DNA from: an uncultured Gemmatimonadales bacterium
Lineage (GTDB): Bacteria > Gemmatimonadota > Gemmatimonadetes > Gemmatimonadales > GWC2-71-9
DNA: 64,000 bases
Assembly: GCA_963771275.1 (NCBI GenBank)
Contig: CAVYSW010000010.1
Coordinates: 96,001-160,000, forward strand
Direction: 5' to 3'
Shown here: positions 24,690 through 53,267 of the stretch, one piece after another
Layout: every line of letters begins with the position of its first letter
Numbering within the stretch: position 1 is the stretch's first letter
Notes under the pieces: generated by a model
What the model was told of the DNA's origin: nothing
The model's input: only the letters and a program-made list of their open reading frames with translations
Databases searched by the model: none
Program-made: the position numbers and the translations under genes

Positions 24690-24882
24690 CGTTCCACCTC
24701 CTCGTGGTTGAGCCAACCAGCGCCGGTCCAACGTGATCGGGCAAGACCGGCGCCCGCGATCATAAGGTGCGGCGCGCGCAGTGCGCTCGCAACCGCCCCT
24801 GGGTGCGACCTGTCCCTGCGGCGCGACCGGCGGTGTACTTTGGAGTTCAGAGTTGCGATTCCGACCTTTTACTGGGGGATCG

Positions 24883-26604
24883 ATGAACCGAGGGGACTCG
24901 ACGCGTCGCACTGTCCGGGGGTTGGTGGGGCTCCTGGTTGCCACGGCGGTTGGACCGCGTGCGGCAACGGCGCAAGTCCGGCTGGTGCCCTTCGTGGGGA
25001 CGTTCGAGCCTCTGGGGGGCCTCGGTAGTCCTTCGGCGGCCAACGCGCAGAACGGTGTGTCGGCCGGGCAGACGCACGCCATGGCGTTCGGGATCGCGGC
25101 TGGTGGCAACCTCACGGGCATGTTCGGCGTGGAAGGCGCCGTAACCCTCGCTCCGTCGGGACTCGGCATCCACGTCCGGGAACCGACCACCGGCGGTGAG
25201 TTCACGCTGGTGCAGAAGGGCTGGATTCTACTGGCGAGCGCGCTCGCGGTGATGGGCCGGCCTGCGGACGGGTCCTACGGTGTCGCCGGCGTCGGCGTCC
25301 AGAAGCGGTGGGGGACGGCGTGGCAGGGTGTGGCAGGCGGTGACCTGTGGTCGGTGGGCGGGGTGTTCGGCATCGGAACCGCGGCCCGCCTGACCGATCG
25401 CTGGCGGTTGGACCTCCGTGCCGAGCTGCGGTTGTACGGCTTCGATCCGGATGGCGGGGGCACGGATTTCGGGTCGTCCCTGGCAACCGACCTGCTCGTT
25501 CGGGTGGGTGTTCCCCTGGCGCTCGGGCAGCCCCGGCGGGCGGACGCGGCGGCGGCGCCGGCTGCACGGAGGGTGGCCACGCGCGACACCGTCGCGGCCG
25601 TCGCGGAGCCTCCGGGGGCCGACCTCCCGCTCGGTGAATCCGTGGTCGCGGTCGCCGCCGGCGGGCGCCAGACCTGCGCCCGCACATCCGCCGGCACCGT
25701 GCGCTGCTGGGGCGCGGCCGGCGGCGCTCCGGCGCCGCGGGTCGACGCCGCACCGTCGCGGGCCGGCGTTACCACCCCGGCGTTGGCGGCGGGCCGCGAG
25801 CACGCGTGTGCCCTGAGCGGCCGTATCGCCCTGTGCTGGGGGAGCAATGCCGCCGGACAACTTGGAACAGACGACCAGCGTGCCCGCGAACACCGCATCA
25901 CCGGCGTCGAGCTCACCGCCCTGGCCGCGGGAGACGAGCACACATGCGGCATCACGGCGGACGGGGCGGTGCTGTGCTGGGGCGCGAACGACCGGGGCCA
26001 GCTGGGGGACGGGTCGACCCGCCGCCGAGCGCGACCGGCGCCGATCGCCGCGAAAGGCCGGTTCACGAGCGTGGCGGCCGGAGGCGACCACACCTGCGCG
26101 CTGCGCCAGGACGGGGTCGTGCTGTGCTGGGGCGACAACTGGTCGGGCCAGGTGGGGAGCGACATGATCGAGTCGATTCCTCAGCCGACCGAGATCGCGG
26201 GGGGGCGCCGCTTCGTGCAGCTCGCCGCGGGCGCCCGGCACACCTGCGCGCTCGACGCCCGAGGTGTGGCATGGTGCTGGGGGGCGAACGCTGCGGGCCA
26301 GCTCGGGGATGGCGGCCGGCGTCAGCGCAATCGGGCGTCCGCGGTGTCGGGCCCGGCGCGCTTCACCGTCGTCGCGGCCGGTGGGGACCACACCTGTGGG
26401 CTCACCGCGGAGGGGGAAGCATGGTGCTGGGGGCGCGGGCGTGACGGCGAGCTCGGCGATGGGGCGTCCGCCGACCGCGCCGTGCCGGTCCCCGCGCGCG
26501 GCGACTCCCGGTTCGCACAGCTGGCGGTGGGGGACCGCCATTCCTGCGGGCTCACCACCGACGGCCGCTTGCTGTGCTGGGGGGACTCCAGGGGGGCCCG
26601 CTGA
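24883..26604 (+). CDS. Outer-membrane beta-barrel fused to a C-terminal 7-blade RCC1/BLIP-II-like propeller
   Basis: Signal peptide (ATA/Q); ~180 aa of amphipathic strands paralogous to 26660-27298; Ala-rich linker; seven AG..HTC...CWG.N..GQLG repeats. Confidence 0.85.
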   Translation: MNRGDSTRRTVRGLVGLLVATAVGPRAATAQVRLVPFVGTFEPLGGLGSPSAANAQNGVSAGQTHAMAFGIAAGGNLTGMFGVEGAVTLAPSGLGIHVREPTTGGEFTLVQKGWILLASALAVMGRPADGSYGVAGVGVQKRWGTAWQGVAGGDLWSVGGVFGIGTAARLTDRWRLDLRAELRLYGFDPDGGGTDFGSSLATDLLVRVGVPLALGQPRRADAAAAPAARRVATRDTVAAVAEPPGADLPLGESVVAVAAGGRQTCARTSAGTVRCWGAAGGAPAPRVDAAPSRAGVTTPALAAGREHACALSGRIALCWGSNAAGQLGTDDQRAREHRITGVELTALAAGDEHTCGITADGAVLCWGANDRGQLGDGSTRRRARPAPIAAKGRFTSVAAGGDHTCALRQDGVVLCWGDNWSGQVGSDMIESIPQPTEIAGGRRFVQLAAGARHTCALDARGVAWCWGANAAGQLGDGGRRQRNRASAVSGPARFTVVAAGGDHTCGLTAEGEAWCWGRGRDGELGDGASADRAVPVPARGDSRFAQLAVGDRHSCGLTTDGRLLCWGDSRGAR

Positions 26605-26609
26605 AACGA

Positions 26610-26639
26610 CGAGGGGCACACCGGCCGGTGCGCCCCTCG
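26610..26639. terminator. Hairpin between convergent genes
   Basis: CGAGGGGC-A-CACCG / CGGTG-C-GCCCCTCG inverted repeat with one mismatch. Confidence 0.55.
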
Positions 26640-26659
26640 CCACTCAGGTCATCACACCG

Positions 26660-27356: not shown

Positions 27357-27426
27357 GACAGTACCGCTTTCGCCAGTCGCGACGCTTCCGTAGGTTGGGG
27401 ACCACGTGGTTTCGGGGAGATGGCGC

Positions 27427-28326
27427 ATGAGCGTTCTGGGTGAGGCCGGTCGGACCCGGTTGAGCATCCCGGCGGTGCGGCCGGATCGGCCCGTCGATCC
27501 GTTCCTCGCGGCCGTGCGCGAGGCCGCCGGCGCGGATTATACCGTCTACGGGGAGATCGGCCGGGCTGGGGACGGCAGCATCGGGTACCTGGCGCGCGAC
27601 ACGCGGCGCGACGGTCTGGTCGCGCTCAAGCTGGCCTGCCGCCCGGGCGCGCCGGAGGAGTTCGAGCTCGAGGTCGTGCAGGAGCTGCGGGACGATCTCC
27701 CGGCGTTCGACAAGTTCTGCGCGAAGTGCGGCGGCGCCCTGCGCGCGTGGGGCCGGTTCTGCCCGCATTGCGGCGCGGAGGTCTTCGGGGACGTCGGGCC
27801 GTGGTCCCCGGAGGAGATGCGCCAGGCGGTGCTGGACTTCGCCGGCGACCGCTACGACATCCTCGGCGAGATGCGCAGTCAGGGCGGCCGGATCTACTTC
27901 GCGCTCGAGAAGGCGTCGGGCCGGATCGAGGCCTTGCGGCTGGAGAAGAAGGGTGCGGAGGAGTTCGCGCTCGGACTCACCGGCGTGCTGAAGCCGATCG
28001 TCCAGGGCGCTGCGCCGCCCCCCCCGCCCCCGCCCCCGCCCCCCCGGCCGCGCGCGGCGCCGCCCCCGGCGCCCCCCGGGATCTCCGCGGCACGCGTCGA
28101 GCCGGCGCGCCCCGGGTTGACGGCGCCCCCGCTCGCTGCCCGGCCGCGCCCTGCGGTGCCGCCGGCGCCGCCACGCCCGCCCGCTCGGGCTGCACGCCCG
28201 TGGGATGAGTGGATTGCACGCGCGCGCCCGCTGTGGGACGACCTGCTGCAGAGCCCCGCAGCCATCGTGGCCCTCGTCGTCATCGGCATTCTGGTGTTGG
28301 TGCTGGTGCTCGCGCTGGTCACCTGA
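27427..28326 (+). CDS. Tail-anchored protein: two kinase N-lobe-like fragments flanking a double zinc ribbon, Pro-rich linker, C-terminal TM
   Basis: YTVYGEIGRAGDGSIGYLARD...LVALKL; CAKC..CPHC; YDILGEM...IYFALEKASGRIEALRL; no HRD or DFG; terminal hydrophobic helix. Confidence 0.75.
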   Translation: MSVLGEAGRTRLSIPAVRPDRPVDPFLAAVREAAGADYTVYGEIGRAGDGSIGYLARDTRRDGLVALKLACRPGAPEEFELEVVQELRDDLPAFDKFCAKCGGALRAWGRFCPHCGAEVFGDVGPWSPEEMRQAVLDFAGDRYDILGEMRSQGGRIYFALEKASGRIEALRLEKKGAEEFALGLTGVLKPIVQGAAPPPPPPPPPPRPRAAPPPAPPGISAARVEPARPGLTAPPLAARPRPAVPPAPPRPPARAARPWDEWIARARPLWDDLLQSPAAIVALVVIGILVLVLVLALVT

Positions 28327-28384: not shown

Positions 28385-28858
28385 CTACTGACAGGTGTCG
28401 CGCGTCCGGGCGACCTGGAACTGCACCCGACTGCCGGTCTTGGGAACCCGCACGATCTCCAGCGGGAAGACGTCGATGTCCAGTTGGTTGCAGGCCGTCG
28501 TGATCGTCACGAAGGCGCGGAAGATGTCCTTCTGTGTCCCGACGCTATCCACGTGGATCCGGTCGCCGGCCTTCATGCGCCCGGCCGCCGCGATCAGCAG
28601 CATCTCCTTGTCGAAGTCGACGTTCGGGAGCGACGGCGGATTGGGATTGGTCGAGGTCACGCGCTCCCACTGGCGCTGCCAGTCGAGCGCGTCGGTGACT
28701 GCGACGTAGGACGAGTCCTGCAAGCCACCGGCGTCGTCCTGGTAGACGATCGCCTCGGGCGCCACCGGCCGGAACGGCGTGGACACCACGATGGCGCGGG
28801 AGCACGCGCTCCCGGTGAGGCCGGCGGCAGTCAGCAGTAGCGGAATCCAGGGTTTCAT
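28385..28858 (-). CDS. Lipoprotein with PrcB-C-like domain
   Basis: GSA-C lipobox; W..QW...P.LPNVDFDKEMLL...G and P..IVRVPK pattern; starts 40 bp after the tssM stop. Confidence 0.7.
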   Translation of the reverse strand: MKPWIPLLLTAAGLTGSACSRAIVVSTPFRPVAPEAIVYQDDAGGLQDSSYVAVTDALDWQRQWERVTSTNPNPPSLPNVDFDKEMLLIAAAGRMKAGDRIHVDSVGTQKDIFRAFVTITTACNQLDIDVFPLEIVRVPKTGSRVQFQVARTRDTCQ

Positions 28859-28898
28859 CGGTCAGCGCCCTCGTGGCGTCGGCGTCCCGTGGTGCCGG

Positions 28899-31800
28899 TT
28901 ACGGTCGGCACACGAGCCGCGAGAAGTAGCCCGGTTGTAGGAGGGGTTCTCCCACCGGGGTGATGCTGCCTTCCACGGCATATGTCGTTCCCTCCCGCTG
29001 GATGTTCCACACGACCCGGAACTCGCCGCGGGAGCGCGCCTCCCAGCGCGCCTGCCCGAACAGCCGGAAGACGCCCCACTGCTCGGGATAGCTGAGAATC
29101 TCGAGGTCCCGGCCTCCCACAGTGACGGACAGCGACGCGCCGCGCGCCTGCTCGGCGACCCACTGGAACACTTCGCTCTGGGTGGCGTTGCTCTGCGTGC
29201 GGCTCATCGGGTGCCCATCGATCACGAGCTTGACGCCCCGCGTGCCGGGCGGCGGGGACAACCGCACCGAGAAGCCGAGCCGGGGTCCCTGACCCTGGGC
29301 GTCGAACCACGTGTTCGCCACGCGCATGGCGCGGTTGTAGAAATCCACGAACGCGCGCGAGATCGCGGGGTTCGGGGCGTTCAGCACGTACTCGTTCGCG
29401 CGCCGCACGAGCGCGCCGCCGAGCGCCTCGGCGTTGAGCCGCGCCAGCTCCCCGTCCTGCGGGTGGAAGATCCGGGCCACGTCGCGCAGCTGGGCCGCCG
29501 ATCCCGCGGCGCTGAACGGGAACCGCGTCATCACCTGGTTGTAGTCGGTGCAGACTGCGCGGATCTGCCCGGCGATCTGCTGCCCCGGCAGCCGCTGCAG
29601 CAGCGCCTCCACCCGGGCGAGCGGATCGTCGAGCAGGCGCCGCATGCTGCCGCCCACGTCCGCCGCCTCGTCCGCGCTGCTGAAGGTCCGCACGAGATCC
29701 TGCGCGGCGCCGCGCGCGGCATTTGCCTGGCCGAGGGCCGCCGTGCGCTCAGGATCCCCACCGGCCGAAACCTGCTGCAGCGCCCGCGCGAGCGCGTCCA
29801 GCGCCGTGACGTAGCTGCGATTCGCCTCCACGATGAGCTGGTCGCCCGCGGCCGGCATCACGGCGTGCACCGGCTGGAACACGCGTCCCAGCACGACGGA
29901 GTCCACGCCGGTGTTGGCCGAGACCACGGCAAGCAGCTGCAGCAGCGGCGACCGCGGCGCGGCGAGCGCCGTGATGCCGGTGGCGGCGCCACCCACCCCG
30001 CCGGGGAGCGTCACCTGGGCCGCTCGCAGGAAGTTGCGCCACTGCGTCACGTAGTCCGCCTCGTAGCGCGCGCGCAGCGTGCGTGTGAGGTCGCCGGCGT
30101 TGCCCCCCGCCGCCGCCTGGCAGCTCAGCGCCTGATAGATCCAGTCCTCGCCCGGCGCACTGAGCTCCCCCTTCGCGAACGCGTCGTGGACCAGCCGCCA
30201 GCCGTCGGCGCTGAACGCCGGCGGCACCTCAGCCGTCACGCGGACCAGCGCGTCCGTGAACCGGATCGGCGGCCGGCCTCCGGCCGCTCGGCTGAGCAGC
30301 GACTGGTAGACCCGGTCGACGTCGCTGAACCCGGTCAGCATGGTGCACGCGCGCGTCGCGAGCATCGCGTCCGGCGCGACCGCGCAGGTCGTGCCGCCGC
30401 CGCACAGCTCGCCGCCGTAGAACCGCAGCTGGCGAACGGCGATCGTCCGATCCTCGCCCTCGAGTCGCACGCCCACCGGCGAGCGTCGCAGCAGCGCCTC
30501 GCCGGCGTCCGGCGTGAGGTGGTCGGGCTGAGACGTCACCATCAGGTAGGCGGCCACGCGCCCGTTGGCGCTGTCCAGCGAGACGCCCTCGACGTTCGCG
30601 GTGAGCGCCGTGAGCTCCCGCCGCACCGAGTCGCGGATGCCGTTGAGGAGGAACGACTGCAACGCGTTCCAGTAGACGGACCGGGCCGGGGCGGCCATCG
30701 CGGCGCCGCGGTAGAGACCCCACCGCAGACGCCAGGGCGGCCCGTGCTCCGCGTAGCCGTGCAGCGTCTCGAGCTGGGTCCGCAGCGCGTCGAGAGCGCG
30801 CAGCGCGAGCGGCAGCGGCTCCGAGGCCGCCATCCCGTGCACGGCTTGCGCGGCGCGCACCACGCGCGAGGAGAGCAGGCGGTTGCCGATGAACGAGACG
30901 GTGAAGCCGAGCGCGAACACCAGCCCGAGCGCCGCGACGGAGGCGAAGGCGACGCGCCGCAGCTGGCGCAGCCCGTGACCGGACTGGGTGAGGCCGAGCG
31001 CGACGCGATCCCGCTGGATGACCTCGTGGAACAACCCGTTGAGGAACAGCCACTGCGGCACACGTCGTCCCGGTCCCCGCGGGGGCTCGGCCTGCCGGGC
31101 CAGCGCGGCGCGCTCTTCCGCGGTGAGCACCTGCGTGGCCCGCACGGCGCCGGCGTCCGCCGACGGCGCGGCCGCGGCGGGCGCCCCGTCCACGACGATC
31201 GCGCGCACCCCGGCGAGATAGAAGCCCCGCAGGAACGGGCTCACCTCGAGCTGTCGTGGGCGGCACAGCTCGACGAGAAACTGGTCGGCCAGCGGCGCGA
31301 GCTTGCGCAGCTCGCGCGGAAACTCGTACGCGGTCGCCCGGTCCGCGCCGCCGGCGATGCGCGGCAGAAGGCGCAGCCGTTGCGCCGCGAGCGATCCGAT
31401 CAGCTCCTCGAGCGCGGCGCTGACGCGCTGGTGTTCCCGATCGGCGTGGGCGCCCGCCGCGATCGGTGGAGCCAGCCGCAGCGTGGCGCCGACCGCCTGC
31501 CGGCCCTCCTCGCCGGCCAGTTGGCCGACGAACTCCGGGAAGCAGCGGATGCGATCCGCTTTGGTGAAGATCACGTAGACGGGGAGCCGGATGCCCAGCG
31601 TCCGGGAGACGGTGGAGAGCCGCTCGCGCAGCACGCGAGCCGCGTTCACGACGGGCTCCTGGTCGCCCTTGACCAGGTCCTCGCAGCTGAAGCACACCAC
31701 GGCGGCCCGCGGCGGCTGCGGGCGACCGGCCAGCACGGCGGCGAGCCGCTTGGGCCGCAGCCGCTGCACCAGGTGGCCCCAGCGGCCGGGATCACCCACC

Positions 31801-32276
31801 AGCTTCCCGCCCGGCTCGACGATCAGCACGCCCCGGGCGTACCACAGGTTGACGTTCGTCGTCGGGGCGACACTCTGGCCGCGCGCGGTTTCGCCGGCGA
31901 GCAGGTCGGGCTCGAGCCCGGAATGGAGAATCGTGGTGGTCTTGGCGCTCCCCTCGGCTCCGAGCACCAGAACCAGTGGGAGATCGCTCAGGGCCCGTAC
32001 GCCCTGCAGGCGCGCCGCCGCCAGACGCTGTCCCGCATGGGTGAACGCCGTGTCGATTTCGTCCGCGGCGGCGCCGCTCGCGCTGCGCCGCGCCCGCTGG
32101 TGCAGGAACCACCCGATCAGGACGGCGACCGCGCCGCCCAACAGGAGCAGGCCCCCGCGGAACACCCACAGGTTCCAGCCCTTGAGCCCCAGCGCGCCGC
32201 CGAGCCACCACACGAGCAGGGCGAACACGCCGTACACGGAGAGCGTAGGTAGCGCGGACCTCACCGAGCGTTGCAT
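28899..32276 (-). CDS. tssM: T6SS membrane complex protein TssM (IcmF/ImcF)
   Basis: Two N-terminal TMs, LPLVLVLGAEGSAKTT, RLPVYVIFTKAD, PFLRGFYL, third TM, WGLYRG, Y..QWRNFL, RFPF and WGVFRLF; 1125 aa. Confidence 0.92.
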   Translation of the reverse strand: MQRSVRSALPTLSVYGVFALLVWWLGGALGLKGWNLWVFRGGLLLLGGAVAVLIGWFLHQRARRSASGAAADEIDTAFTHAGQRLAAARLQGVRALSDLPLVLVLGAEGSAKTTTILHSGLEPDLLAGETARGQSVAPTTNVNLWYARGVLIVEPGGKLVGDPGRWGHLVQRLRPKRLAAVLAGRPQPPRAAVVCFSCEDLVKGDQEPVVNAARVLRERLSTVSRTLGIRLPVYVIFTKADRIRCFPEFVGQLAGEEGRQAVGATLRLAPPIAAGAHADREHQRVSAALEELIGSLAAQRLRLLPRIAGGADRATAYEFPRELRKLAPLADQFLVELCRPRQLEVSPFLRGFYLAGVRAIVVDGAPAAAAPSADAGAVRATQVLTAEERAALARQAEPPRGPGRRVPQWLFLNGLFHEVIQRDRVALGLTQSGHGLRQLRRVAFASVAALGLVFALGFTVSFIGNRLLSSRVVRAAQAVHGMAASEPLPLALRALDALRTQLETLHGYAEHGPPWRLRWGLYRGAAMAAPARSVYWNALQSFLLNGIRDSVRRELTALTANVEGVSLDSANGRVAAYLMVTSQPDHLTPDAGEALLRRSPVGVRLEGEDRTIAVRQLRFYGGELCGGGTTCAVAPDAMLATRACTMLTGFSDVDRVYQSLLSRAAGGRPPIRFTDALVRVTAEVPPAFSADGWRLVHDAFAKGELSAPGEDWIYQALSCQAAAGGNAGDLTRTLRARYEADYVTQWRNFLRAAQVTLPGGVGGAATGITALAAPRSPLLQLLAVVSANTGVDSVVLGRVFQPVHAVMPAAGDQLIVEANRSYVTALDALARALQQVSAGGDPERTAALGQANAARGAAQDLVRTFSSADEAADVGGSMRRLLDDPLARVEALLQRLPGQQIAGQIRAVCTDYNQVMTRFPFSAAGSAAQLRDVARIFHPQDGELARLNAEALGGALVRRANEYVLNAPNPAISRAFVDFYNRAMRVANTWFDAQGQGPRLGFSVRLSPPPGTRGVKLVIDGHPMSRTQSNATQSEVFQWVAEQARGASLSVTVGGRDLEILSYPEQWGVFRLFGQARWEARSRGEFRVVWNIQREGTTYAVEGSITPVGEPLLQPGYFSRLVCRP

Positions 32277-32283
32277 GGTGGTC

Positions 32284-32979
32284 TCAGCTCCCCATGCCGG
32301 CCAGCCGGGAGATGCCGGAGCGCAGCGACAGGGCGTAGAGCGCGAACAGCAGCAGCGCGAGCCCGAACGCCGCCAGAGCCGACCACTTGAGCCGCGGGAG
32401 CCACCGGTCGGGCGTCACCTCGGGGCGCTCGCCTGGCGGCAGGCGCCACGCGGCGGCGAGGTCCGTCGTGGTCCCCCGAATGCGCTGGATCTTCTCGTCG
32501 GTCGCGGTCATCAGCGCCTGGATGTCTCCCCCGCCCCCGGCGCTGTACTGCCCGCGGAAGCCGAGGATCAGACACAGTTGATAGACCTCGAGCACGTCGG
32601 CGATGTCGTCGGAGTTCTCGCGCGCGAGCAGCCCGCGGAGATTCTCGAAGAACGTGCGGCCGCCCATGTGGTCGCCGAAGACCTCTTCCTGCAGCGGCAT
32701 CCGCGGCCACTCCGCGAAGGCCGGCAGGCTGGAGGTGAGCACGGCTTCGTCGAGATACACGACGAACGCGTACACGGCCAGGCCGACCTCGGTCCCGCCG
32801 TACCCCAGCTGTCGTGCCTCGCGATCGGCCTGCGCGATCAGCTGCTTCGCGTGGTTGCGGAATGCCGTGGCATCGGCCGCCACGTCGCGCCCGGCGCGGA
32901 GCCGCGCGCCCGCCGTGAACGCTTCCTGCAACCGCAGGGCGAGCTGGCCGCGGCGGCCGGCTGGACGCGGGTCGCTCAT
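32284..32979 (-). CDS. tssL: T6SS protein TssL (DotU), no OmpA domain
   Basis: YAFVVYLDEAVL, W...PLQ..F, GG..FF, LEVYQLCLILGFRGQY, C-terminal TM. Confidence 0.93.
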   Translation of the reverse strand: MSDPRPAGRRGQLALRLQEAFTAGARLRAGRDVAADATAFRNHAKQLIAQADREARQLGYGGTEVGLAVYAFVVYLDEAVLTSSLPAFAEWPRMPLQEEVFGDHMGGRTFFENLRGLLARENSDDIADVLEVYQLCLILGFRGQYSAGGGGDIQALMTATDEKIQRIRGTTTDLAAAWRLPPGERPEVTPDRWLPRLKWSALAAFGLALLLFALYALSLRSGISRLAGMGS

Positions 32980-33012
32980 CGCGGGGCGCGCCGCGCGGGC
33001 GGCGCCGATCGA

Positions 33013-34356
33013 TCAGAGAACGGCAAGGACGTTGAGCTCCTTCACGCGGGTGGCGTCAGGGGTGTAGATCCCGATCTCGCTCGACTGCACAATGGCCTGC
33101 CAGCACGGTCCATCCAGCGTCACCGCGAAATAGTGATGCTGGCTGCGCACCGGTATCTCCGCCGGCGGCACGGGGAGGTGCGTGAGCCCCAGGGCCGGCA
33201 GGCCTTCCTTCACCAACCGCACGATGTGGCGGGCCGAGCAGACTTTCAGCAGGCGCGGCAGCTGGACGGCCGCGTTGGGGTCGGGTGACTCGAGCGCCAC
33301 CTCCAGCACCCAGCGCGCGGGGTGAAGGGCGCGGTTGTCCCCCACCGTGCCCGTGAACAGAAACTCGCGGGAGCGCGTGAGCGGGACGGTCACGTACCGG
33401 CTGGGCGCCACGACCTCGAGGTTCGCGCGGATCCACCGGTCCAGCTCCGTGAAGCACTTCTCCAGGTGGTCGTGGTCGTACACGGGCAGGTCGCGCGGAC
33501 TGGTATCGAGCGTGAACGTGCACAGCGCGCCCGCCAGGCGGGCGAGGTCGGTGTAGACCTGCTCGGGGCTGGAGCGGCGTGAGGTCAGATGGTGGCGCAG
33601 GGGCCCGAGGCTCGAGTGGATGGTATGCAGCATCCACAGCCGGGCAACCTGTTGCGCCGGATCCGCGGCGTCCGAGCCGCCTTCCCGCCGGGTGCCGGCC
33701 AGGGCGTCGCTCTGCGCCGTCAGGATGTCGGTCAGGCGGGCCAGCAGGTCGATGATCCGGCGGCTCGCGCCGATCTGGAGACATGGCGGGATGTACTCCA
33801 GATCGTACACGAAGTGCCCCGACCCGTCCCGCTTGACGCGGGCGATCGGCAGCTGGATCGCATCCGTGTCGCGCTCCGATTCGAGCACCAGCGCAAAGTT
33901 CTTCCGGCCGACGCGCACGACCTGGCGTCCGACCCCGGTCGTCTCGTCGCTGACCGCCTCGTCCTCCCCGACGTATCGCACCCCCTCGGACTCGCCGGCC
34001 TCCATCGCGCAGTTGCGGCTGCCGTCCCGGTAGGGGGGCACGACCAGCATCACGACACGGCTTTGCTCGGTGGGCAGGAACAGCTCGCGGATGTCGCGCG
34101 AGGCGGGCACCGGATCGCTGTCCGGGAAATGAAACGCCAGGCCGTCCGGCATCACGCCCCGGGCGTGCACCAGCGCGACGACACCGTTGTGCAGGGCGTC
34201 CGCGTCCAGCTCACAGCCCAGCAGCCCGTACGGAGTCGGGAACAGGTGCTGGAGGGCGAAGCCGATCGCGTTCTCGAAATACCGGTTCTGGGCCTGGAAG
34301 TGATGCTGGGCGAGATGCATCCCCTCGCTCCAGACCAGCCGCGACAACGGTCTCAT
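33013..34356 (-). CDS. tssK: T6SS baseplate protein TssK (copy 1)
   Basis: VWSEGMHLAQHHFQAQ, GVMPDG, IPPCL, LAGALCTF, YDHD and GLPALGLTHLPVPP. Confidence 0.93.
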   Translation of the reverse strand: MRPLSRLVWSEGMHLAQHHFQAQNRYFENAIGFALQHLFPTPYGLLGCELDADALHNGVVALVHARGVMPDGLAFHFPDSDPVPASRDIRELFLPTEQSRVVMLVVPPYRDGSRNCAMEAGESEGVRYVGEDEAVSDETTGVGRQVVRVGRKNFALVLESERDTDAIQLPIARVKRDGSGHFVYDLEYIPPCLQIGASRRIIDLLARLTDILTAQSDALAGTRREGGSDAADPAQQVARLWMLHTIHSSLGPLRHHLTSRRSSPEQVYTDLARLAGALCTFTLDTSPRDLPVYDHDHLEKCFTELDRWIRANLEVVAPSRYVTVPLTRSREFLFTGTVGDNRALHPARWVLEVALESPDPNAAVQLPRLLKVCSARHIVRLVKEGLPALGLTHLPVPPAEIPVRSQHHYFAVTLDGPCWQAIVQSSEIGIYTPDATRVKELNVLAVL

Positions 34357-34462
34357 CGTGCTCTTTCAGGCTCCGGAGCGAGGGTGCGTCGTGCGCGGCG
34401 GCCGGGCGGGCCCGCCGCCGCCGAAGGGCGCCCGCAGACGGGGCCCGGTCTCGGGGCCGCAT

Positions 34463-34537
34463 TTGCGTACGTCGCATGGCGTCCGCTATGATAACACGTG
34501 CTTCCGATATTATGCGGTCCCGCCCCGGCAGCAGCAA
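34463..34537. promoter_or_regulatory. Pair of opposed sigma70-like promoters
   Basis: Plus strand TTGCGT(34463)-18 bp-TATGAT(34487-92); minus strand TTGCTG(34537-32)-17 bp-CATAAT(34514-09); AT-rich patch. Confidence 0.5.
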
Positions 34538-34580
34538 CCGTCCCGGGGGAGTTGACGCGCACACAGGGAGTCCGACGGCG

Positions 34581-36200
34581 ATGACCGGCGCCGAGTTCCA
34601 GGCCCGCTACCAGCTCCTCGCGGAGATCGCGACCGGGGCGGTGCGAACGCTGATGGCCCGCGATGCACAGGGCGTGCTCGTCATGGCCCACTTTCTCGGG
34701 CCGGCGGTGGGCGAAGGCACGCAGCGCCTCATCGCCGCGGACCGGCTCCCGGCTCAGGCCCGCGGGGTCCTGCTCGAGCGGTGCGTCGTGGATGGCCACG
34801 TCGTGCTGATCACGCGGGTGCTCGATGGCTTCGTGGATTTCGGCTCCTGGCTGCGGGCCCAGGGGGGCACGGCCGCGCCCGTGGTCCAGCCACCGGCCGT
34901 GACCCAGCCGACCCCGGTCGCCCCGGCTCGCGAGATGCCACCGACCCCGCCGGCGCCCGAGGTGGCTGCGCCGCCCGCCCCGCCGGCCCCGCCCGCGAGC
35001 GGCGAGTTCACGCAGATGTTCGGGCGCCCCGGGGGGGCGGCCGCCGCGCCACCGCAGGCGACGGCACCAGCGCCGGCGGCCGCCACCGTGCGGCTGCCGA
35101 CGGTGGAGCGATCCGCCACGCCGCCGCCGGTGACGCCGTCTCCCCCGACCGTTCCCTCGGCACCCCAAGCCGGCGAGTTCTCGCAACTGTTCGGTGCACC
35201 GCAGATCCCTGTGCCGCCGCCCGTTGCGCCCCCCATCTCTCCGACGCCGCCGGAGGCCGCCGAAACCGTGCGGCTGCCGACCGTCGAGCGGACCGTCGAG
35301 CCTCCGGCGGCGCACGGTGGCGAGTTCACCCAGCTGTTTGGCGCGCCAAGCGTCCCGAAGCCTCCTGCGGGGCCGCCGGCTGCTGCGCGGCCGGCGCCGG
35401 AGCCTCCGCGAGCCGGGCCGCCGGTTGGGCAGGGGCCGCCCCCGCCTCCCCCACAGCCCTCGGTGCCGCCCCCCGCCCCGGTCGCGATGCCGCCCGCCGC
35501 GACGCCGCGTTCGGGTCCGCGCATTATGTGGAAGGGCGCCGCGGCGCCGCCACCCGTCGCGCCGCCATCAGCCCCCGTCGCGCCCGAGCCGCCCCGCCCG
35601 GCACCGCCGGCGGCCGCGCCGGCGGCCCCGCCCCCGCGACCCCCGGCGCCACCCCCCCGACCTCCGGCTCCGCCGCCCCGGCCCGTCGCCCCCCCTGCTC
35701 GGCAGGACGCCCCGGGTGAGTTCACCAAGCTGTTCGGCGCACCGAGCGACGGGAGCCCCACCGCACCGCCGCCGCGGCCCGCGCAGGCGGCCGGCGAGCC
35801 GCCGTTCGGTCGGGGGGGCCGCGACTATCGGGATGCGCTCGATAGCCTGCATCGGCCGCTCGACGAGCGGCCCGCGCCGGAGCCGCCGCGCGCGCCGCCA
35901 CCCAGACCGCCCATGGAGCCCGAGTTCCCCAGAGACCTCCCTCCCGGGTTCCCGCGCGACCCGCTGCCTCCGGTGGCCCCCCCGGCGGCCGAGCGCCCGC
36001 CCGTGGGCCTGTCGCCGGGCGGTTTCACGCAGGTCATTGCCGGCAGGTCCCAGGCAAAGCTGGGCGATGCCGCGGCCGAGTCGGCGATGGGCCAGCCCGC
36101 GGCGGAAGCCCCGCCGGGCATGCCGCGCTGGCTCGTGATCTCGTTGGTGGTGATCGGGGTGCTCGCGCTCGTCCTGATCGTCGCGATCGCGGTGTTCTAG
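34581..36200 (+). CDS. Pro-rich tail-anchored protein with a degenerate kinase N-lobe-like head and repeated GEFTxxFG motifs
   Basis: AGGGAG RBS then ATG 34581; ~95 aa globular head; motifs at 35001, 35172, 35319, 35715 and 36018; C-terminal TM. Confidence 0.8.
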   Translation: MTGAEFQARYQLLAEIATGAVRTLMARDAQGVLVMAHFLGPAVGEGTQRLIAADRLPAQARGVLLERCVVDGHVVLITRVLDGFVDFGSWLRAQGGTAAPVVQPPAVTQPTPVAPAREMPPTPPAPEVAAPPAPPAPPASGEFTQMFGRPGGAAAAPPQATAPAPAAATVRLPTVERSATPPPVTPSPPTVPSAPQAGEFSQLFGAPQIPVPPPVAPPISPTPPEAAETVRLPTVERTVEPPAAHGGEFTQLFGAPSVPKPPAGPPAAARPAPEPPRAGPPVGQGPPPPPPQPSVPPPAPVAMPPAATPRSGPRIMWKGAAAPPPVAPPSAPVAPEPPRPAPPAAAPAAPPPRPPAPPPRPPAPPPRPVAPPARQDAPGEFTKLFGAPSDGSPTAPPPRPAQAAGEPPFGRGGRDYRDALDSLHRPLDERPAPEPPRAPPPRPPMEPEFPRDLPPGFPRDPLPPVAPPAAERPPVGLSPGGFTQVIAGRSQAKLGDAAAESAMGQPAAEAPPGMPRWLVISLVVIGVLALVLIVAIAVF

Positions 36201-37570
36201 CGTCCGCGCGTGGCTTCGCGCTGCGGCTCCGGCAGCAGGATCACCAGCTCCAGCTCCACGTCGGGAAGATCGGCCGGGGCGTAGACCGCGACGTTGCGGG
36301 CGAGCGCGATGCCATCCCAGTCGGTCCCCTGCCGGTTCAACTCGAAATACTGGAAGTCGAGCTTCACCGGGATGGCGGAGGGTGGCTGGACGACGTGCGT
36401 CAGCTCCACGCCGGGCAGTGCCTGCTTGATCAGCCGCTCGAGCCGGTCCGCCGCGCTCAGCTTGAGCAGGCGCGGGGCGCGCCGCACGTCGGCCACCTTG
36501 GCGCTCGAGCGCACCGCGAGGAACATCTGCGGTGCCTGGAGGTAGCGGTCGTCGTCCAGCGCGGTCGCGTAGACCGACGGCGACACCAGGCGGAGCGGCA
36601 GGGACACGCAGCGCTCCGGCACCACCGTGGCCAGCAGCTCGCGGAGCTGCTCGTCCAGCGTGGTGAAGCATCCGGCCAGGTCGGTGTGGTCATACGCCGG
36701 CAGATCGCGCGGGTGAATCCGGCCGGAAAACGTCGTGAGCGCGCCCGCGAGCCCCATCATTGCCTCGTACAGTGCCGCCGGATGCGCGTGCCGCTGCTCC
36801 AGCAGATGCCGGGCCATCGGCAGATGCGAGTTCACCGTGTAGAGCAGCCAGAAGCTCGCGACGTCGCCGACGCCGAACTCGGCGAGGCTCTGCTTGCGCT
36901 GGCGGCGCCCGCCCGCGATCGTCGCGCTCTTGGCCGACAGCACTTCGACCAGCCGGCGTACCATCGCGACGAGGTACTCGCTGGCCGAGAAGTCGATCAG
37001 CGGCGGCACGAAGTGGGGGTCGAGCTCGTAGTCGCCGGTGGGGAGCCGGCGGACCCGCGCCACGGGGAGCGCGGAGCTTCCCTCGAGCGACTCACCGCCC
37101 ACCAGAATGCGGAAGTTCTTCCGCGCCACCATCACCGGCTTCTCCGACAGGCCCGTGTTCTCGTCCCGCCGCGTCACGACCTCGGCGCGGTAGCGCGTGC
37201 CGGCTTCCAGCTCGGCGGTCGCCACGTTGTGCCCGCCGACCCGGTATTCCGGAATCGTCAGGTGCACGTCCAGCGTCTGCTGGTCGGGGTCCCAGCATTC
37301 CTTGAGCGGTCGGGGGGGCGGCGCGGCATCCGCGCCCGGAATGTCGAACGACAGCCCGTCCGGGAACACGCCGGCGGCGGCGGTGAGCGCCAACGATCCG
37401 GCGGCGAGCTCCTCGCGGTTGATATCGAGCCGGTGGAATCCCCACGGGAAGAACGTCAGCCCGGCAAGCCGGAAGCTCAGCAGATCCTCCAGGTAGCGAT
37501 CCTGAATCTGCAGGTGCTGGGGAGTAAGCAGCACACCCTTGGACCAGAGAACCGGCTGCAGTTGGCGCAT
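36197..37570 (-). CDS. tssK: T6SS baseplate protein TssK (copy 2)
   Basis: MRQLQPVLWSKGVLLTPQHLQIQD, GVFPDG, FVPPL, LAGALTTF, YDHTDL, ALPGVELTH and YFEL. Confidence 0.93.
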   Translation of the reverse strand: MRQLQPVLWSKGVLLTPQHLQIQDRYLEDLLSFRLAGLTFFPWGFHRLDINREELAAGSLALTAAAGVFPDGLSFDIPGADAAPPPRPLKECWDPDQQTLDVHLTIPEYRVGGHNVATAELEAGTRYRAEVVTRRDENTGLSEKPVMVARKNFRILVGGESLEGSSALPVARVRRLPTGDYELDPHFVPPLIDFSASEYLVAMVRRLVEVLSAKSATIAGGRRQRKQSLAEFGVGDVASFWLLYTVNSHLPMARHLLEQRHAHPAALYEAMMGLAGALTTFSGRIHPRDLPAYDHTDLAGCFTTLDEQLRELLATVVPERCVSLPLRLVSPSVYATALDDDRYLQAPQMFLAVRSSAKVADVRRAPRLLKLSAADRLERLIKQALPGVELTHVVQPPSAIPVKLDFQYFELNRQGTDWDGIALARNVAVYAPADLPDVELELVILLPEPQREATRGR

Positions 37571-37662
37571 GAGGCGATAACCTAGCGCCGGAGGGCATGA
37601 AGTCCAGTCTGGCGTGCCGTCGGGCTGGCGCGTGCCCCCGAGGGCTGACATGTTTCCGCGGC

Positions 37663-39140
37663 ATGCCGTCGCGCGCTGAAGTCCATCTCGATGCGGGGGT
37701 TGCGCCCCGGCCCGACTCGCCCGGCGCTCCGCTCCCCGATCAGCTGCTGCCGATCGCGCTGGTCGGCGACTTCAGCGGCCGCACGCATCGTGGCCCGGTG
37801 GTCGTCGGGCCGCCCCTGGAGGAGCGGCGGCCCGTGCGGGTCGATCGCGACACGCTGGACCAGGGGCTTGCGCACTTCGCGCCGGAGGTCCCGCTCGCGC
37901 TTGGGGGCACGGCGGCGGACGCGGCCGTGCGATTCTCGGCGCTCGACGATTTCCACCCGGATGCGCTGCTCGCGCGGTTACCGGTGTTTGCCATGCTGCG
38001 GTCCATGCGCGAGCCCGCGGGCGAGCGCGGTGGGGGGGGACGGCGGACCCCGGCGCGCCCGTCGCGCCTCCGAGCCCGCTCGACCTGGTGCATCAGGGTG
38101 ACCTGCTGAGCCGTGCGGTCGCCGCGACGCTGGGGGAGTCGGGAGGGGGTGCCGACCCGCTGCAGGCGTTCGTGCGGCGGCTGGTGGCGCCGCATCTCGT
38201 GCGGGAGGCCGGGCCCGCGGAGCGCGTCTGGCGAGCGCAGGTGGACGCCACCGCCGGCGCGTTGCTGCGCGAGATCCTCCACGGTCCCGGCATCCGCGCG
38301 CTCGAAGCGCTGTGGCGCGCGGTCGACTTCCTGGTGCGCCGGGTCGACAGTGATGCCGAGCCCCCGTTCTATCTCGTGGACGTGAGCCAGCCGGAAGCCG
38401 CCGCGGACTTGGCGGCGGCCGGCCGTGTCGAGGACACGGCGCTGGTCCGGCTGCTCGGCGGTCCCCCGGGCGGGCGCTGGGGCGCGATCGTCAGCGACTT
38501 CTCGTTTGGCGCGGACCCGAACGACGCGATCCTGGCCGGGCGTCTGGCGGCGCTCGCCCGATCGGCCGGCGCGCCGTGGCTGGCCGCGGCAAGCCCGGCG
38601 CTCGCGGGCTGCCCGTCGCTGGTGGATCATCCCGATCCCGCCGCATGGGACCGGGCGGTTCCCGCGGCATGGGGCATGCTCCGCCGGCAACGGGAGGCGG
38701 CCTGGCTGGGGCTGGCGCTGCCGCGGTTCCTGCTGCGCCTGCCGTACGGTCCTGACACCGAGCCGTGCGCGCTACGCGACTGGCGGGAGACGACCGAGCC
38801 GCCGCGGCATGATCAGTATCTCTGGGGCAACCCCGCCTTCGCCTGTGCCTTGCTCCTGGCAGGGCGTCTCGGGCCGGGTGGAACCTGGCGTACCCCTGGT
38901 GGGGTACTCGACATCGGAGATCTCCCGCTGCACCTCAGCGCGGCGGATGGAGAAACCCGTGCGCAGCCCTGCGCCGAGGTGCTGCTGTCGGAGCGGGCGG
39001 CGCACCGGCTGCTCGACGCTGGCCTCATGCCACTCGTGTCGCTCAAGGACCGCGATGCCGTACGGCTGCTGCGGTTCCAGTCGTTTGCGGAGCCCGCGGC
39101 GCCGCTTGCCGGACCGTGGGGTGGTGCCGGGCGCGCTTGA
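37663..39140 (+). CDS. TssB-like plus truncated TssC-like fusion protein; frameshift at the G8 run (38032-38039)
   Basis: TssB-like GDFSGR, VRVDRDTLD and F..LDDFHPD; then, in another frame, TssC-like ILH....ALEALWRAVDFLV, LGLALPRFLLRLPYG, YLWGNPAF and GLMPL; ends before the TssC C-terminal domain. Confidence 0.8.
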
Positions 39141-39165
39141 CAGTGCCGCACGGCAGGCATATTAG
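39137..39165 (+). promoter_or_regulatory. Possible promoter for the tssB operon
   Basis: Perfect TTGACA (39137-42) followed by an imperfect -10 (CATATTAG, 39158-65). Confidence 0.4.
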
Positions 39166-39211
39166 GTGAGGACGGAGTTGCCCTGATCCCAAGTCGCCGC
39201 AGGAGTCGCCG

Positions 39212-39745
39212 ATGCCCAAGGAAAGCGTACACAAGAAGCTGGAGCGGGTTCGCCCGCCACGGGTGAACATCACCTACGACGTCGAAGTCGGGGACGCGAT
39301 CGAGACCAAGGAACTCCCGTTCGTCATGGGAGTATTCGCCGATCTCACGGGTCAGCCCACCGAGCCGTTGCCCAAGCTCAAGGACCGCAAGTTCGTCGAG
39401 GTCACGCTCGACAACTTCGACGACGTGCTGAAGCGGATGCAGCCGCACCTCACGCTGGCGGTCGAGAACAAGCTCAGTGACGAGGCCAACGCCGGGAAGA
39501 TGGCCGTGGATCTCACGTTCGAGGGCCTCGACGACTTCCGGCCCGACCGCGTCGCGGGGCGGGTGGAGCCGCTGAAGAAGCTGCTCGACCTGCGCACGCA
39601 GCTGGGCGATCTGCGCGGGAAGCTGCAGGGCAACGACAAGCTCGACGATCTGCTGCAGAAGTCGCTGACGGACGCGGAGAAGCGCAAGCAGCTCAAGGGC
39701 GAGCTGGATGCGGAGGGCGGCTCCGAGGGAGGGAAGGATGGCTAA
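39212..39745 (+). CDS. tssB: T6SS sheath small subunit TssB
   Basis: RVRPPRVNITYDVE, ELPFVMGV, RKFVEV..DNFD and DDFRPD. Confidence 0.97.
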   Translation: MPKESVHKKLERVRPPRVNITYDVEVGDAIETKELPFVMGVFADLTGQPTEPLPKLKDRKFVEVTLDNFDDVLKRMQPHLTLAVENKLSDEANAGKMAVDLTFEGLDDFRPDRVAGRVEPLKKLLDLRTQLGDLRGKLQGNDKLDDLLQKSLTDAEKRKQLKGELDAEGGSEGGKDG

Positions 39746-41228: not shown

Positions 41229-41271
41229 CGCAGCCAGGTATTCCACGCGGACTTGACCAAGGAGGGGTCCA

Positions 41272-42463: not shown

Positions 42464-42469
42464 GCGCGC

Positions 42470-44278: not shown

Positions 44279-44291
44279 GCCGAGGCGACCG

Positions 44292-50323: not shown

Positions 50324-50338
50324 CCCGGGAGGTACGCG

Positions 50339-52333: not shown

Positions 52334-52335
52334 CC

Positions 52336-52950: not shown

Positions 52951-52955
52951 CGCTC

Positions 52956-53258: not shown

Positions 53259-53267
53259 GGCCTCACG

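Follow-up and report, generated by a model that had tools for sequence, protein, structure and literature searches.

The window analysed here, a stretch of 64,000 nucleotides, carries on its forward strand an open reading frame (24883..26604) whose translation, designated P0001, is a 573-aa fusion protein in which a signal peptide, an 8-stranded OmpW/OmpA-like beta-barrel, a disordered tether of about 40 aa and a 7-blade RCC1 propeller follow one another. The start codon is backed by the orthologues P0004 and P0005, which have the same MNRG beginning. The signal peptide, read from the sequence, takes up residues 1-30 (24883..24972), with a putative cleavage site after ...ATA and before QVRLVPF, and the AF2 model of the barrel places a helix at residues 5-22 ahead of the first strand. 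The outer-membrane (OM) barrel occupies residues ~32-214 (24976..25524, by AF2 and Foldseek), the Ala/Pro-rich tether residues ~215-253 (25525..25641) and the propeller residues ~254-573 (25642..26601, by Pfam, a list of its blades and AF2). A mixed MAFFT alignment was unfit for folding, as barrel-only rows fell under the propeller; the full-length protein was modelled without these rows and the barrel was folded separately. The full-length model (pTM 0.58) had a pLDDT below 50 in the linker at residues 215-245, 54-89 over residues 254-300 and 92-98 in the propeller from residue ~300 on. Full-length matches to P0001 comprised six protein clusters (95-100% coverage, 66-99% identity, 565-599 aa), and a metagenome scan with P0001 as query yielded one true fusion orthologue, at locus L043 (79%), with the same convergent barrel partner. 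Locus L044, which had the appearance of a fusion in tblastn, was rejected, since the barrel there is encoded by a gene of its own, after a kinase gene. P0008 lies on a 49 kb contig and P0009 on a 77 kb contig. A promoter and terminator scan of 24300-27500 returned zero sites.

Convergent with the fusion gene lies the gene of a stand-alone 8-stranded barrel of 212 aa, P0003 (26660..27298, reverse strand; PF13505), followed on the forward strand by that of a 306-aa Zn-ribbon membrane protein (27406..28326), which was recognized by weak Zn-ribbon Pfam matches and has, besides a C-terminal TM helix, a Pro-rich stretch and two repeats that resemble a kinase N-lobe. Next comes a complete type VI secretion system (T6SS) cluster (28385..54242, by Pfam) encoding a lipoprotein, TssM, L, K, K2, B, C, Hcp, ImpE, TssA, E, F, G, ClpV, VgrG, DUF6931, PAAR and a LysM protein; the lipobox is in a 157-aa ORF and the lipoprotein gene is beside tssM. 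The fusion, barrel and Zn-ribbon genes flank this cluster on one side. On the other side is a reverse-strand gene (54303..56183) for a protein with the order FHA, TM helix, coiled coil and trypsin-like serine protease (Pfam FHA 2.5e-15, Trypsin_2 3.1e-14; TNRH and GGSSGGP motifs), and divergent from it is the gene of the receptor Ser/Thr kinase P0002 (56319..59900, forward strand, 1193 aa, by Pfam). P0002 begins with a Zn ribbon, followed by a kinase domain (residues 73-316, 56535-57266) that matches PF00069 with 150.9 bits (cut-off 31.7) and makes it a Hanks-type kinase, then by a Pro-rich region and a TM helix (residues 535-556, 57921-57986), three Big_2 domains (residues ~561-846, 57999-58856) and an RCC1 propeller (residues 847-1193, 58857-59897). 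The three Big_2 stretches between TM helix and propeller bear out an earlier sequence-only reading of this DNA, which had raised the kinase propeller on three Ig domains. An orthologue, P0205, is 93% identical to P0002, and the record of the kinase from its own genome, P0167, is 1182 aa long, so that translation may start at residue 12 instead. These two were the only useful ones among the 120 matches listed by an orthologue search with the P0002 propeller, which multi-propeller proteins dominated.

That the N-terminus of P0001 would fold as a barrel, as had been proposed from the letters, was confirmed by an AF2 model built from a 133-row alignment (pLDDT 90.5, pTM 0.82), which has 8 long strands. 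A Foldseek search with this model returned 13 matches at E<=0.001, led by 2x27, 2f1t, 8qxp and OmpA; the top matches were OprG (2x27, E 3.5e-6) and OmpW (2f1t, E 5e-6), and the OmpA TM domain, Ail and OmpX were also found. By its signal peptide, 8 strands and fold matches, the N-terminus thus qualifies as an 8-stranded OM barrel of the OmpW/OprG/OmpA/OmpX class. A Pfam barrel match at E<=0.01 was absent for P0001. Its barrel is 33% identical to the neighbouring P0003 (E 1e-25), which matches PF13505 OMP_b-brl with 32.3 bits (cut-off 28.7); 10 of the 14 aligned members of the barrel family match PF13505. This family has 803 representatives, nearly all of them stand-alone; a search with the barrel profile for longer, fused proteins scored nothing and missed the known fusions too. 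A third, distant barrel in the source genome (C3:1015121-1015741, E 7.5e-15) is without an RCC1 neighbour. The most conserved motifs of the barrel, R-G-G-x-x-W and D-P-D-G, are in loops that would be extracellular under the canonical topology.

OprG and OmpW are small-molecule channels, and one reading of the locus is that these barrels pass a small, perhaps hydrophobic, signal, that the propellers are its periplasmic receptors and that the fusion is stationed at the channel exit as a receptor or sink, which would make contact with the kinase unnecessary. The best structural matches and the position of the conserved motifs in predicted extracellular loops favor this reading, and the gene neighborhood data given below fit it equally. 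However, neither P0001 nor P0003 belongs to the OmpW family by Pfam or NCBIfam, which give the generic OMP_b-brl alone, the Foldseek TM-scores for OmpW/OmpA are just 0.5-0.65, and a hand-off at the pore needs neither a long tether nor an Ig domain; we consider passage of a ligand unlikely as the explanation. A very improbable reading is that the barrel exports a Big_2/propeller passenger to the cell surface in the style of the inverse autotransporters intimin and invasin. The fusion P0268, which has the order barrel, Ig-like domain and globular head, has such a layout, and autotransporter barrels do occur low in the Foldseek list, but with TM-scores of 0.30-0.36 against the 0.5-0.65 of OmpW/OmpA. 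Inverse autotransporters have a 12-stranded N-terminal barrel with a threaded linker, whereas the P0001 model has 8 strands and no Pfam match to them; in addition, the stand-alone barrels of the family are without a passenger, and the homologous kinase propellers follow a single TM helix on its C-terminal side, which puts them in the periplasm.

By a canonical rule, even-stranded OM barrels have both ends facing the periplasm, and on this rule the fused propeller of P0001 would be located in the periplasm. As modelled, the architecture is that of OmpA-like beads on a string. Some barrel-propeller fusions have a Big_2 domain and others do not, P0268 being of the barrel-Big_2-RCC1 form; in a 7-row alignment of the fusions, the P0001 tether aligns with the flanks of the P0268 Big_2 domain and is possibly a relic of such a domain. 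The order of barrel, Ala/Pro hinge and globular periplasmic domain would also suit an OmpA-like staple, the propeller of which binds peptidoglycan or another periplasmic polymer, so that its likeness to the kinase reflects a shared ligand and no joint signaling. PASTA kinases read wall fragments, and the best NCBIfam match of the P0002 kinase domain is a PASTA-kinase model, below its cut-off. A Pfam search, however, found neither OmpA_C nor any wall-binding domain in P0001, whose C-terminal domain is RCC1 in place of the peptidoglycan-binding OmpA_C that the OmpA family requires, and a plain staple leaves the conserved linkage with the kinase, the FHA-protease and the second barrel unexplained. 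We regard a purely structural role as decidedly unlikely.

The propeller of P0001 matched the Pfam models WD40_RLD (8.7e-64), RCC1_2 (6 stretches) and RCC1 (4 stretches), and a score of 216.5 bits, above the cut-off of 150, makes it a member of the RCC1/RCC1-like domains (PF25390, PF00415, PF13540); the P0002 propeller, likewise a member, reached 309.7 bits, with RCC1_2 in 7 stretches. Among solved structures, UVR8 (E 6.5e-59), HERC2, RCC1 and ACR4 matched the propeller by sequence. In the P0001 propeller, the junction of blades 1 and 2 is degenerate, and the last CWG is not followed by a closing GQLG strand. The sequence-only reading had held that fusion and kinase each have seven CWG blades with matching motifs in the same order: seven C-W-G blades were indeed counted in each protein, and all three of the motif pairs it quoted are present in both translations. 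BLASTP aligned the two proteins in register with 162/323 identities (50%, E 2e-101), and the best off-register alignment reached 111/291 (38%). The blade-for-blade correspondence it had claimed held, by best alignment score, for five of the seven blades (2, 3, 4, 5 and 7); the alignment of the short blade 1 was uninformative, and blade 6 was in a near tie with blade 4 (alignment scores 138 vs 141).

The genome has only three RCC1 genes: PF25390 gave 4 matches in 3 ORFs, tblastn found the same three loci, and all RCC1_2 repeat matches across the genome (20/20) were inside these ORFs. The third gene (contig C9:195988-199350) encodes a second kinase of the same architecture as P0002, and its propeller is 41% identical to that of P0001 and 39% to that of P0002. 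The two propellers of the window are thus closer to each other (50%) than to the other genomic RCC1 sequence, as had been predicted. A private duplication of the fusion-kinase pair was nevertheless rejected, as the fusion propellers were without a resolved sister relation to that of P0002; judged by the trees and by the full-length orthologues of the fusion, the paralogy is old.

A query with the barrel at E<=1e-11 (60 relatives) led to 12 places, in 11 of which an RCC1 gene has its 3' end no more than about 1.2 kb away, a count that overstates independence because the genomes are kin and the neighborhood is partly co-inherited. Further cases of a barrel next to an RCC1 gene were seen at L044, L097 and L098. 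Propeller rows for the trees were extracted by BLAST range, HMM envelopes at 80% model coverage having kept too few. In a first tree, the barrel-adjacent propellers were all in one 17-row clade (SH-aLRT 98) and the remaining 24 rows were without a barrel in their ~1.5-kb flanks. A careful tree recovered a 12-row clade of A-type propellers (100/100), in which six fusion propellers (100/100) stand with kinases from four genomes. In these other members of this narrow clade, the propeller forms the membrane-distal tip of a Zn-ribbon receptor kinase of the Hanks type, which consists of kinase domain, TM helix, Big_2 stalk and propeller. Kinase genes of this and of the sister clade nearly always have a stand-alone gene of the barrel family next to them. 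Neither kinase of the source genome has a barrel next door; therefore, the barrel stayed with the fusion.

In a tree of the barrels, those beside A-type kinases formed a clade (100/99), into which P0003 also falls, and five same-genus barrels beside C9-type kinases formed another (99/96); the other two barrels by C9-type kinases, at L044 and L009, attached only weakly. Kinase subtypes are, on this tree, tracked by barrel subtypes. In another Gemmatimonadales genome, locus L097 contains within 9 kb the genes of a Zn-ribbon protein, an FHA-protease, a kinase-RCC1 protein, a barrel and a barrel-Big_2-RCC1 fusion, and the Big_2-RCC1 part of this fusion is sister to that of the neighboring kinase (99/99). 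The homologue of the Zn-ribbon protein at this locus (41% identity) is encoded directly downstream of the FHA-protease gene, and FHA-protease homologues (39-40% identity) are divergent from the kinase in both L097 and L098. The Zn-ribbon protein (27406-28326) probably belongs to the same module as the kinase and the fusion.

The position of these genes on both sides of a complete T6SS cluster raises the possibility that they form a post-translational switch of the TagQR-PpkA-Fha type for that system, the fusion acting as TagQ/TagR and activating the kinase on membrane damage. Residues 12-252 of the FHA protein align with the TagH/Fha model TIGR03354, TssF is found in both genomes known to carry a fusion (G000 and G061), and a Ser/Thr kinase is beside TssM in G057 too. 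The TagQRST-PpkA-PppA threonine phosphorylation pathway has ppkA, fha and the PP2C gene pppA within a T6SS cluster and the lipoprotein TagQ and TagR as partners; of these, a kinase and an FHA protein were seen here, at the flanks of the cluster, and TagR-like or TagQ-like families did not appear among 30 window ORFs scanned. The TagQ/R-PpkA mechanism is a precedent in the excerpts of PMC13713981, and, as far as the excerpts of PMC9251886 go, contact-dependent T6SS assembly requires OmpA plus a periplasmic protein, which would also fit. Against this, the TIGR03354 match has 34.5 bits, below the cut-off of 120.25, and a PP2C phosphatase was absent among the 30 window ORFs scanned. The contig that bears the module in G061 is without a T6SS gene in its 21.8 kb and the T6SS contig of that genome is without a module gene. 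Kinase-barrel pairs occur, but TssF was not found, in G062, G001 (71% complete), G026 (94%) and G018 (98%), while the same-genus genomes G002, G003, G005 and G006 have TssF without an A-type propeller (best identity 41-46%), and the T6SS loci of G057, G006 and G013 are without RCC1, barrel or FHA-trypsin matches. The link between the T6SS and the barrel and kinase genes is not conserved, and a dedicated T6SS switch is an unlikely account of the module. The barrel as a missing outer-membrane part of the T6SS was rejected as well, since a lipoprotein gene adjoins tssM and the T6SS loci of the relatives G057, G006 and G013 have no barrel match.

We favor, at a probability of roughly 45%, the reading that the kinase, the FHA-TM-trypsin-like protein, the stand-alone barrel and the fusion are parts of one conserved envelope-spanning signaling module. 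In such a module, the barrels would mark the outer-membrane side, the kinase, by means of three Ig-like domains, would lift its propeller by about 12 nm and the fusion would hang a second copy of the propeller from the outer membrane into the periplasm. The fused propeller may pair with the kinase propeller or compete for its ligand or for its barrel, so that kinase activity would be set by the state or the distance of the outer membrane. Once phosphorylated, the kinase would recruit the FHA protein, the periplasmic protease domain of which would be the likely first output; because the halves of the module bracket the T6SS cluster, T6SS control is a possible downstream use in the source genome. 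Several observations count against the module: the conserved barrel motifs are in loops predicted to be outside the cell and not on the periplasmic face, where contact would be made; the barrel family at large has no fixed association with RCC1; neither kinase of the source genome has a barrel beside it; and the shared neighborhoods come from related genomes. A complex prediction for the P0002 propeller and the mature P0003 barrel (residues 27-212) scored 0.00 and counts neither way. A more specific form of the module, which we hold to be unlikely, has the kinase propeller and the barrel-tethered propeller form a heteromeric bridge across the periplasm, the breaking or stretching of which by OM damage or a change in envelope width would switch the kinase, with recruitment of the FHA-anchored protease and firing of the T6SS. 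If this were true, the pair would be a self-paralogous trans-envelope ruler in which a Hanks kinase is combined with an integral OM barrel.

Envelope-spanning signaling in diderms is known mostly from Proteobacteria, with the lipoprotein partners RcsF, NlpE, QseG and TagQ. The set of barrel, kinase and protease looks like an undescribed signaling set across the bacterial envelope, a variant of sensing by an OM partner and an inner-membrane (IM) kinase; a shallow literature search, which is weak evidence, found neither a barrel-RCC1 fusion nor bacterial kinases with an RCC1 ectodomain described among the matches listed. Unusually, the receptor kinase, which is of the Hanks type and has a long Ig stalk, is paired with an integral OM barrel dedicated to it, and some lineages have the kinase's own sensor domain copied and fused to a barrel of the same family. 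Such a fusion is a natural Rosetta-stone clue to joint action of barrel and propeller. The four or five proteins would provide a testable set for how Gemmatimonadota read the state of the outer membrane and, for the source organism, a new candidate input into the control of its T6SS, and a barrel family of unknown function (803 representative clusters) would thereby be named.

Several known systems resemble parts of this set. OmpA of E. coli has the same layout and predicted topology as P0001, with an 8-stranded barrel, a Pro-rich hinge and a periplasmic domain, but the periplasmic domain of P0001 is an RCC1 propeller and that of OmpA the peptidoglycan-binding OmpA_C, and sequence comparison places the P0001 barrel in no family beyond the generic OMP_b-brl. 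Of the solved structures, the plant UV-B receptor UVR8 matches the propeller best by sequence; the UVR8 propeller forms face-to-face homodimers, a precedent for propeller-propeller pairing, although UVR8 is a eukaryotic cytosolic/nuclear photoreceptor. The propeller of the M. tuberculosis kinase PknD is of the NHL type. Like P0002, PknD (as described in the excerpts of PMC1847690) and Arabidopsis ACR4, the ectodomain of which (7a0j) was matched directly by the propeller sequence (E 4.3e-12), are Hanks-type kinases with one TM helix and an extracytoplasmic propeller; unlike in the present set, neither is known to have an Ig stalk, a dedicated OM barrel or a membrane-anchored paralogue of the ectodomain. 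For an OM-anchored partner acting on an IM kinase or sensor, the excerpts of PMC6075780 provide a precedent in QseG-QseE. In the Rcs system, according to the excerpts of PMC5736177 and PMC9907809, an OM-located sensor that works with OM barrels reaches its IM partner IgaA across a periplasm of set width and depends on periplasm size; the protein families, however, are unrelated, RcsF is a lipoprotein threaded through porins, and the Rcs output is a phosphorelay and not a Hanks kinase. The TagQ/TagR-PpkA-Fha1 pathway of the P. aeruginosa H1-T6SS, in the excerpts of PMC13713981 a membrane-damage signaling module with an OM-anchored partner acting on an IM kinase, shares with the present locus an OM-anchored periplasmic partner, a TM Hanks-type kinase and an FHA protein at a T6SS cluster. 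The T6SS linkage here is not conserved, and the FHA protein, which has a protease domain as well as a TM helix, is below the TagH cut-off; the anchor is an integral barrel in place of a lipoprotein, and its periplasmic part and the sensor domain of the kinase itself are paralogues.

The fusion gene (24883-26604, +; 573-aa product, P0001) and the kinase gene (56319-59900, +; 1193-aa product, P0002) each encode an RCC1 propeller, and the three motif pairs that the sequence-only reading had quoted for a blade-for-blade match were all found in the translations. By BLASTP, residues 257-571 of P0001 aligned with residues 852-1173 of P0002 at 50% identity (162/323, E 2e-101), and out-of-register alignments reached 38% at best. 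When both propellers were split at their seven C-W-G motifs and the blades scored against each other, the proposed correspondence held for blades 2, 3, 4, 5 and 7, each matching its own counterpart best, while blade 6 scored almost equally against blades 6 and 4, and blade 1, which is short, was uninformative. The genome (G000; 3.86 Mb, 11 contigs, ~70% G+C), in which the window corresponds to C10:96001-160000, contains exactly three RCC1 genes, PF25390 returning three ORFs and tblastn the same three, and all 20 of its RCC1_2 repeat matches fell inside them. The third gene (C9:195988-199350) encodes a second kinase of the same build as P0002, whose propeller shares 41% identity with that of P0001 and 39% with that of P0002; the latter two are nearer to each other (50%), as had been claimed. 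The in-register identity, the blade matches and the presence of only three genomic RCC1 genes indicate that the likeness is real and far exceeds plain repeat similarity.

In a careful 26-row propeller tree, a 12-row clade (A-type, 100/100) comprised six P0001-type fusions (100/100), P0002 with its 93% orthologue P0205 (100/100), the kinases of G001, L097 and L098, and the L097 fusion, whose propeller is sister to that of the L097 kinase (99/99). The branches that order the groups within this clade had low support (55-78). Since P0001 and P0002 fall in separate 100/100 groups, P0001 is paralogous to the kinase lineage of P0002 but is no recent copy of P0002 itself.

Pfam detected the propeller alone in P0001, and NCBIfam offered no family name for P0001 or for P0003, a stand-alone barrel encoded at 26660-27298, convergent with the fusion gene; names in the source records are 'alpha-tubulin suppressor-like RCC1 family protein' or 'hypothetical'. 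The N-terminal 215 residues of P0001 are 33% identical to P0003 (E 1e-25), which scores above the gathering score of OMP_b-brl, a model matched by 10 of the 14 aligned barrel-family members. Residues 1-226, folded on a 133-row alignment of family members, gave a model in which a signal-peptide helix precedes eight long strands (pLDDT 90.5, pTM 0.82); Foldseek returned 13 PDB matches at E<=0.001, headed by OprG, OmpW, the OmpA transmembrane domain, Ail and OmpX, in agreement with the earlier view that the N-terminus is a barrel. In the full-length model, pLDDT was 92-98 from residue ~300 onward in the propeller and below 50 for residues 215-245, with an overall pTM of 0.58, so that P0001 is, as modelled, two domains joined by a flexible tether. 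P0001-type proteins have just six residues after their final CWG, and their blade 2 is without the GQLG motif; the kinases and P0268, the L097 fusion, have kept both this motif and the stretch that follows the final CWG. Based on the canonical topology of even-stranded outer-membrane barrels, the fused propeller would hang in the periplasm; its display at the cell surface we regard as very improbable.

The fusion is conserved: six protein clusters of 565-599 aa are 66-99% identical to P0001 across 95-100% of its length, and the other 114 of the 120 proteins listed for P0001 match in the propeller only. In metagenome locus L043, a 79% orthologue of P0001 is accompanied by a convergent stand-alone barrel and an upstream DUF2339 gene, as in the window. 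A TonB-dependent receptor gene (L043:1459-4851, -) lies there between the DUF2339 and fusion genes; the window has none at that spot, the gene at 24883 coming next after 22563-24329. A profile search with the barrel alignment across 1.84 billion representatives yielded 803 proteins at E<=0.001. Four of the best 150 exceed 300 aa, and two of these four are barrel-RCC1 fusions, namely P0006, the representative of the P0001 group, and the 647-aa P0268, in which a single Big_2 domain separates the barrel from the RCC1 propeller. The barrel protein P0255 (313 aa) has a 100-residue post-barrel tail with P-S-x-P…F-x-P-Q-Q, as in antisense RCC1 translations of the window; the gene as called probably extends into an RCC1 gene converging on it, and the two would then make one more barrel-RCC1 neighbour pair.

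Gene linkage of barrels to RCC1 genes was surveyed by searching 60 relatives, all of them MAGs and many with short contigs, with the barrel portion of P0001 (E<=1e-11). At 11 of 12 barrel places, the 3' end of an RCC1 gene lay within ~1.2 kb, in tandem or convergent; the sole exception (G018:C63) is 170 nt from a contig end. Loci L044, L097 and L098 are additional cases, and of five weaker barrel places, the two looked at (L011, L012) had no RCC1 gene nearby. In a 41-propeller tree, from which the duplicate loci L001, L002, L013 and L031, an additional ORF of L039 and three rows of <80% coverage were left out, every barrel-adjacent propeller fell inside one 17-row clade (SH-aLRT 98), and the remaining 24 rows had no barrel within the ~1.5-kb flanks examined. 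Genome G020, which is flagged as unpublished, enters the barrel, RCC1 and TssF counts as one genome, and no claim depends on it.

Barrel subtype also matches kinase subtype. In a 33-row barrel tree, the stand-alone barrels beside A-type kinases formed one clade (100/99) and five same-genus barrels beside kinases like that on C9 formed another (99/96), the remaining two C9-type barrels (L044, L009) attaching weakly. Barrels from the two fusion forms grouped together (92/89) on a very long stem. This may be read either as one old fusion whose L097 descendant later exchanged its propeller with the adjacent kinase, or as fusion having happened twice to one barrel subtype. The C9 kinase gene of G000 is followed directly by a Zn-metalloprotease-like gene (C9:195988-201965); a stand-alone barrel gene stands between the two in G006 (L008) and directly after the kinase in G002 (L006), where the stretch examined holds no metalloprotease gene. 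G000 seems to have lost the barrel beside its C9 kinase.

Within 9 kb, locus L097 (Gemmatimonadales MAG G061) holds a Zn-ribbon homologue, an FHA-TM-trypsin protein, an RCC1 kinase, a stand-alone barrel and the barrel-Big_2-RCC1 fusion. The FHA-protease, kinase and barrel core also occurs at L098 and at G001:C187, a contig that ends within the kinase gene. The same five gene kinds are present in the window but split into two groups, with fusion, barrel and Zn-ribbon protein at 24.9-28.3 kb and FHA-protease and kinase at 54.3-59.9 kb. P0002 consists of a Zn ribbon, Pkinase (73-316), a Pro-rich region, a TM helix (535-556), three Big_2 stretches and the propeller, in keeping with the proposed mounting of the propeller on three Ig domains. 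In the A-type kinases L097:5685-8903 and L014:1486-3948 (G001), the predicted TM helix is preceded by a Big_2-like domain, which would place this domain on the cytoplasmic side. Such a position is unusual for an Ig-like domain and points either to a different topology or to an extra membrane pass that was overlooked. Divergent from the kinase gene, 54303-56183 (-) encodes the FHA-TM-coiled coil-trypsin-like protein, whose trypsin-like domain retains its His and GGSSGGP motifs; a long coiled coil lies between FHA and protease. Since these two stand on opposite sides of one TM helix, the layout would let the kinase recruit a periplasmic protease in a phospho-dependent way. The Zn-ribbon protein (27406-28326, +) has two repeats resembling the first strands of a kinase N-lobe (…Y.ILGE.G..G….Y.A.…) flanking a CxxC…CxxC ribbon, and continues with a poly-Pro stretch and, at its C-terminus, a TM helix; its homologue in L097 (L097:3089-3727, -) adjoins the FHA-protease gene.

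Between the two groups, Pfam identified TssM, TssL, two TssK, TssB, TssC, Hcp, ImpE, TssA, TssE, TssF, TssG, ClpV, VgrG, DUF6931, PAAR and a LysM protein (28.9-54.2 kb). This T6SS cluster (28385-54242) is complete and collinear with those of G057, G006 and G013. It has two TssK paralogues (33013-34356, 36197-37651), an ImpE/TagJ gene and, upstream of tssB/tssC, an extra VipB-like ORF (38088-39140); vgrG is followed by DUF6931, PAAR and LysM genes. Directly beside tssM, 28385-28858 (-) encodes a 157-aa lipoprotein (lipobox …LTGSAC) without a Pfam or NCBIfam match, a candidate TssJ-like outer-membrane lipoprotein. The presence of a kinase and an FHA protein at a T6SS cluster brings the PpkA-Fha pathway to mind, and an OM-anchored periplasmic partner resembles TagQ/TagR (PMC13713981). 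However, the link to the T6SS is not conserved across relatives, and a switch specific to the T6SS is quite unlikely. TssF occurs in 8/61 genomes; G061 has its T6SS on a different contig from L097, without module genes; G062, G001, G026 and G018 have kinase-barrel pairs, and TssF was not found in them; four same-genus genomes with TssF have no A-type propeller; and RCC1, barrel and FHA-trypsin genes are all absent from the T6SS loci of G057, G006 and G013. The window FHA protein scored 34.5 bits against TagH (cut-off 120.25).

We propose, with a probability of roughly 0.45, that the kinase, FHA-protease, barrel and fusion form a single envelope-spanning signalling module. The fused propeller would be suspended in the periplasm and would pair with the kinase propeller, or compete with it, and the FHA-anchored protease would be the first output. 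An Ig-like domain is ~4 nm long; three such domains, two propellers and a 40-residue tether would together approximate the width of the periplasm, so that the two propellers could meet. Against this module stand the most conserved barrel motifs, which canonical topology places in loops outside the cell, and a distant third G000 barrel without an RCC1 neighbour; the related genomes are, moreover, non-independent samples. That third barrel (C3:1015121-1015741, -; profile E 7.5e-15) adjoins a response-regulator-like gene. A model in which the barrel serves as a ligand channel appears unlikely, if somewhat less so than the T6SS switch.

The top-ranked literature matches included no paper on barrel-RCC1 fusions or on bacterial kinases with RCC1 ectodomains, which is weak evidence that neither has been described. 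OmpA is the nearest architecture in layout, and a plain OmpA-like staple we consider improbable. For an outer-membrane partner acting on an inner-membrane sensor, as the module would require, TagQ/R-PpkA, RcsF-OMP-IgaA and QseG-QseE come nearest. The best solved-structure match of the propeller is UVR8. PknD and plant ACR4 are, like P0002, receptor kinases with propeller ectodomains, and ACR4 is a direct sequence match of the propeller (E 4.3e-12).
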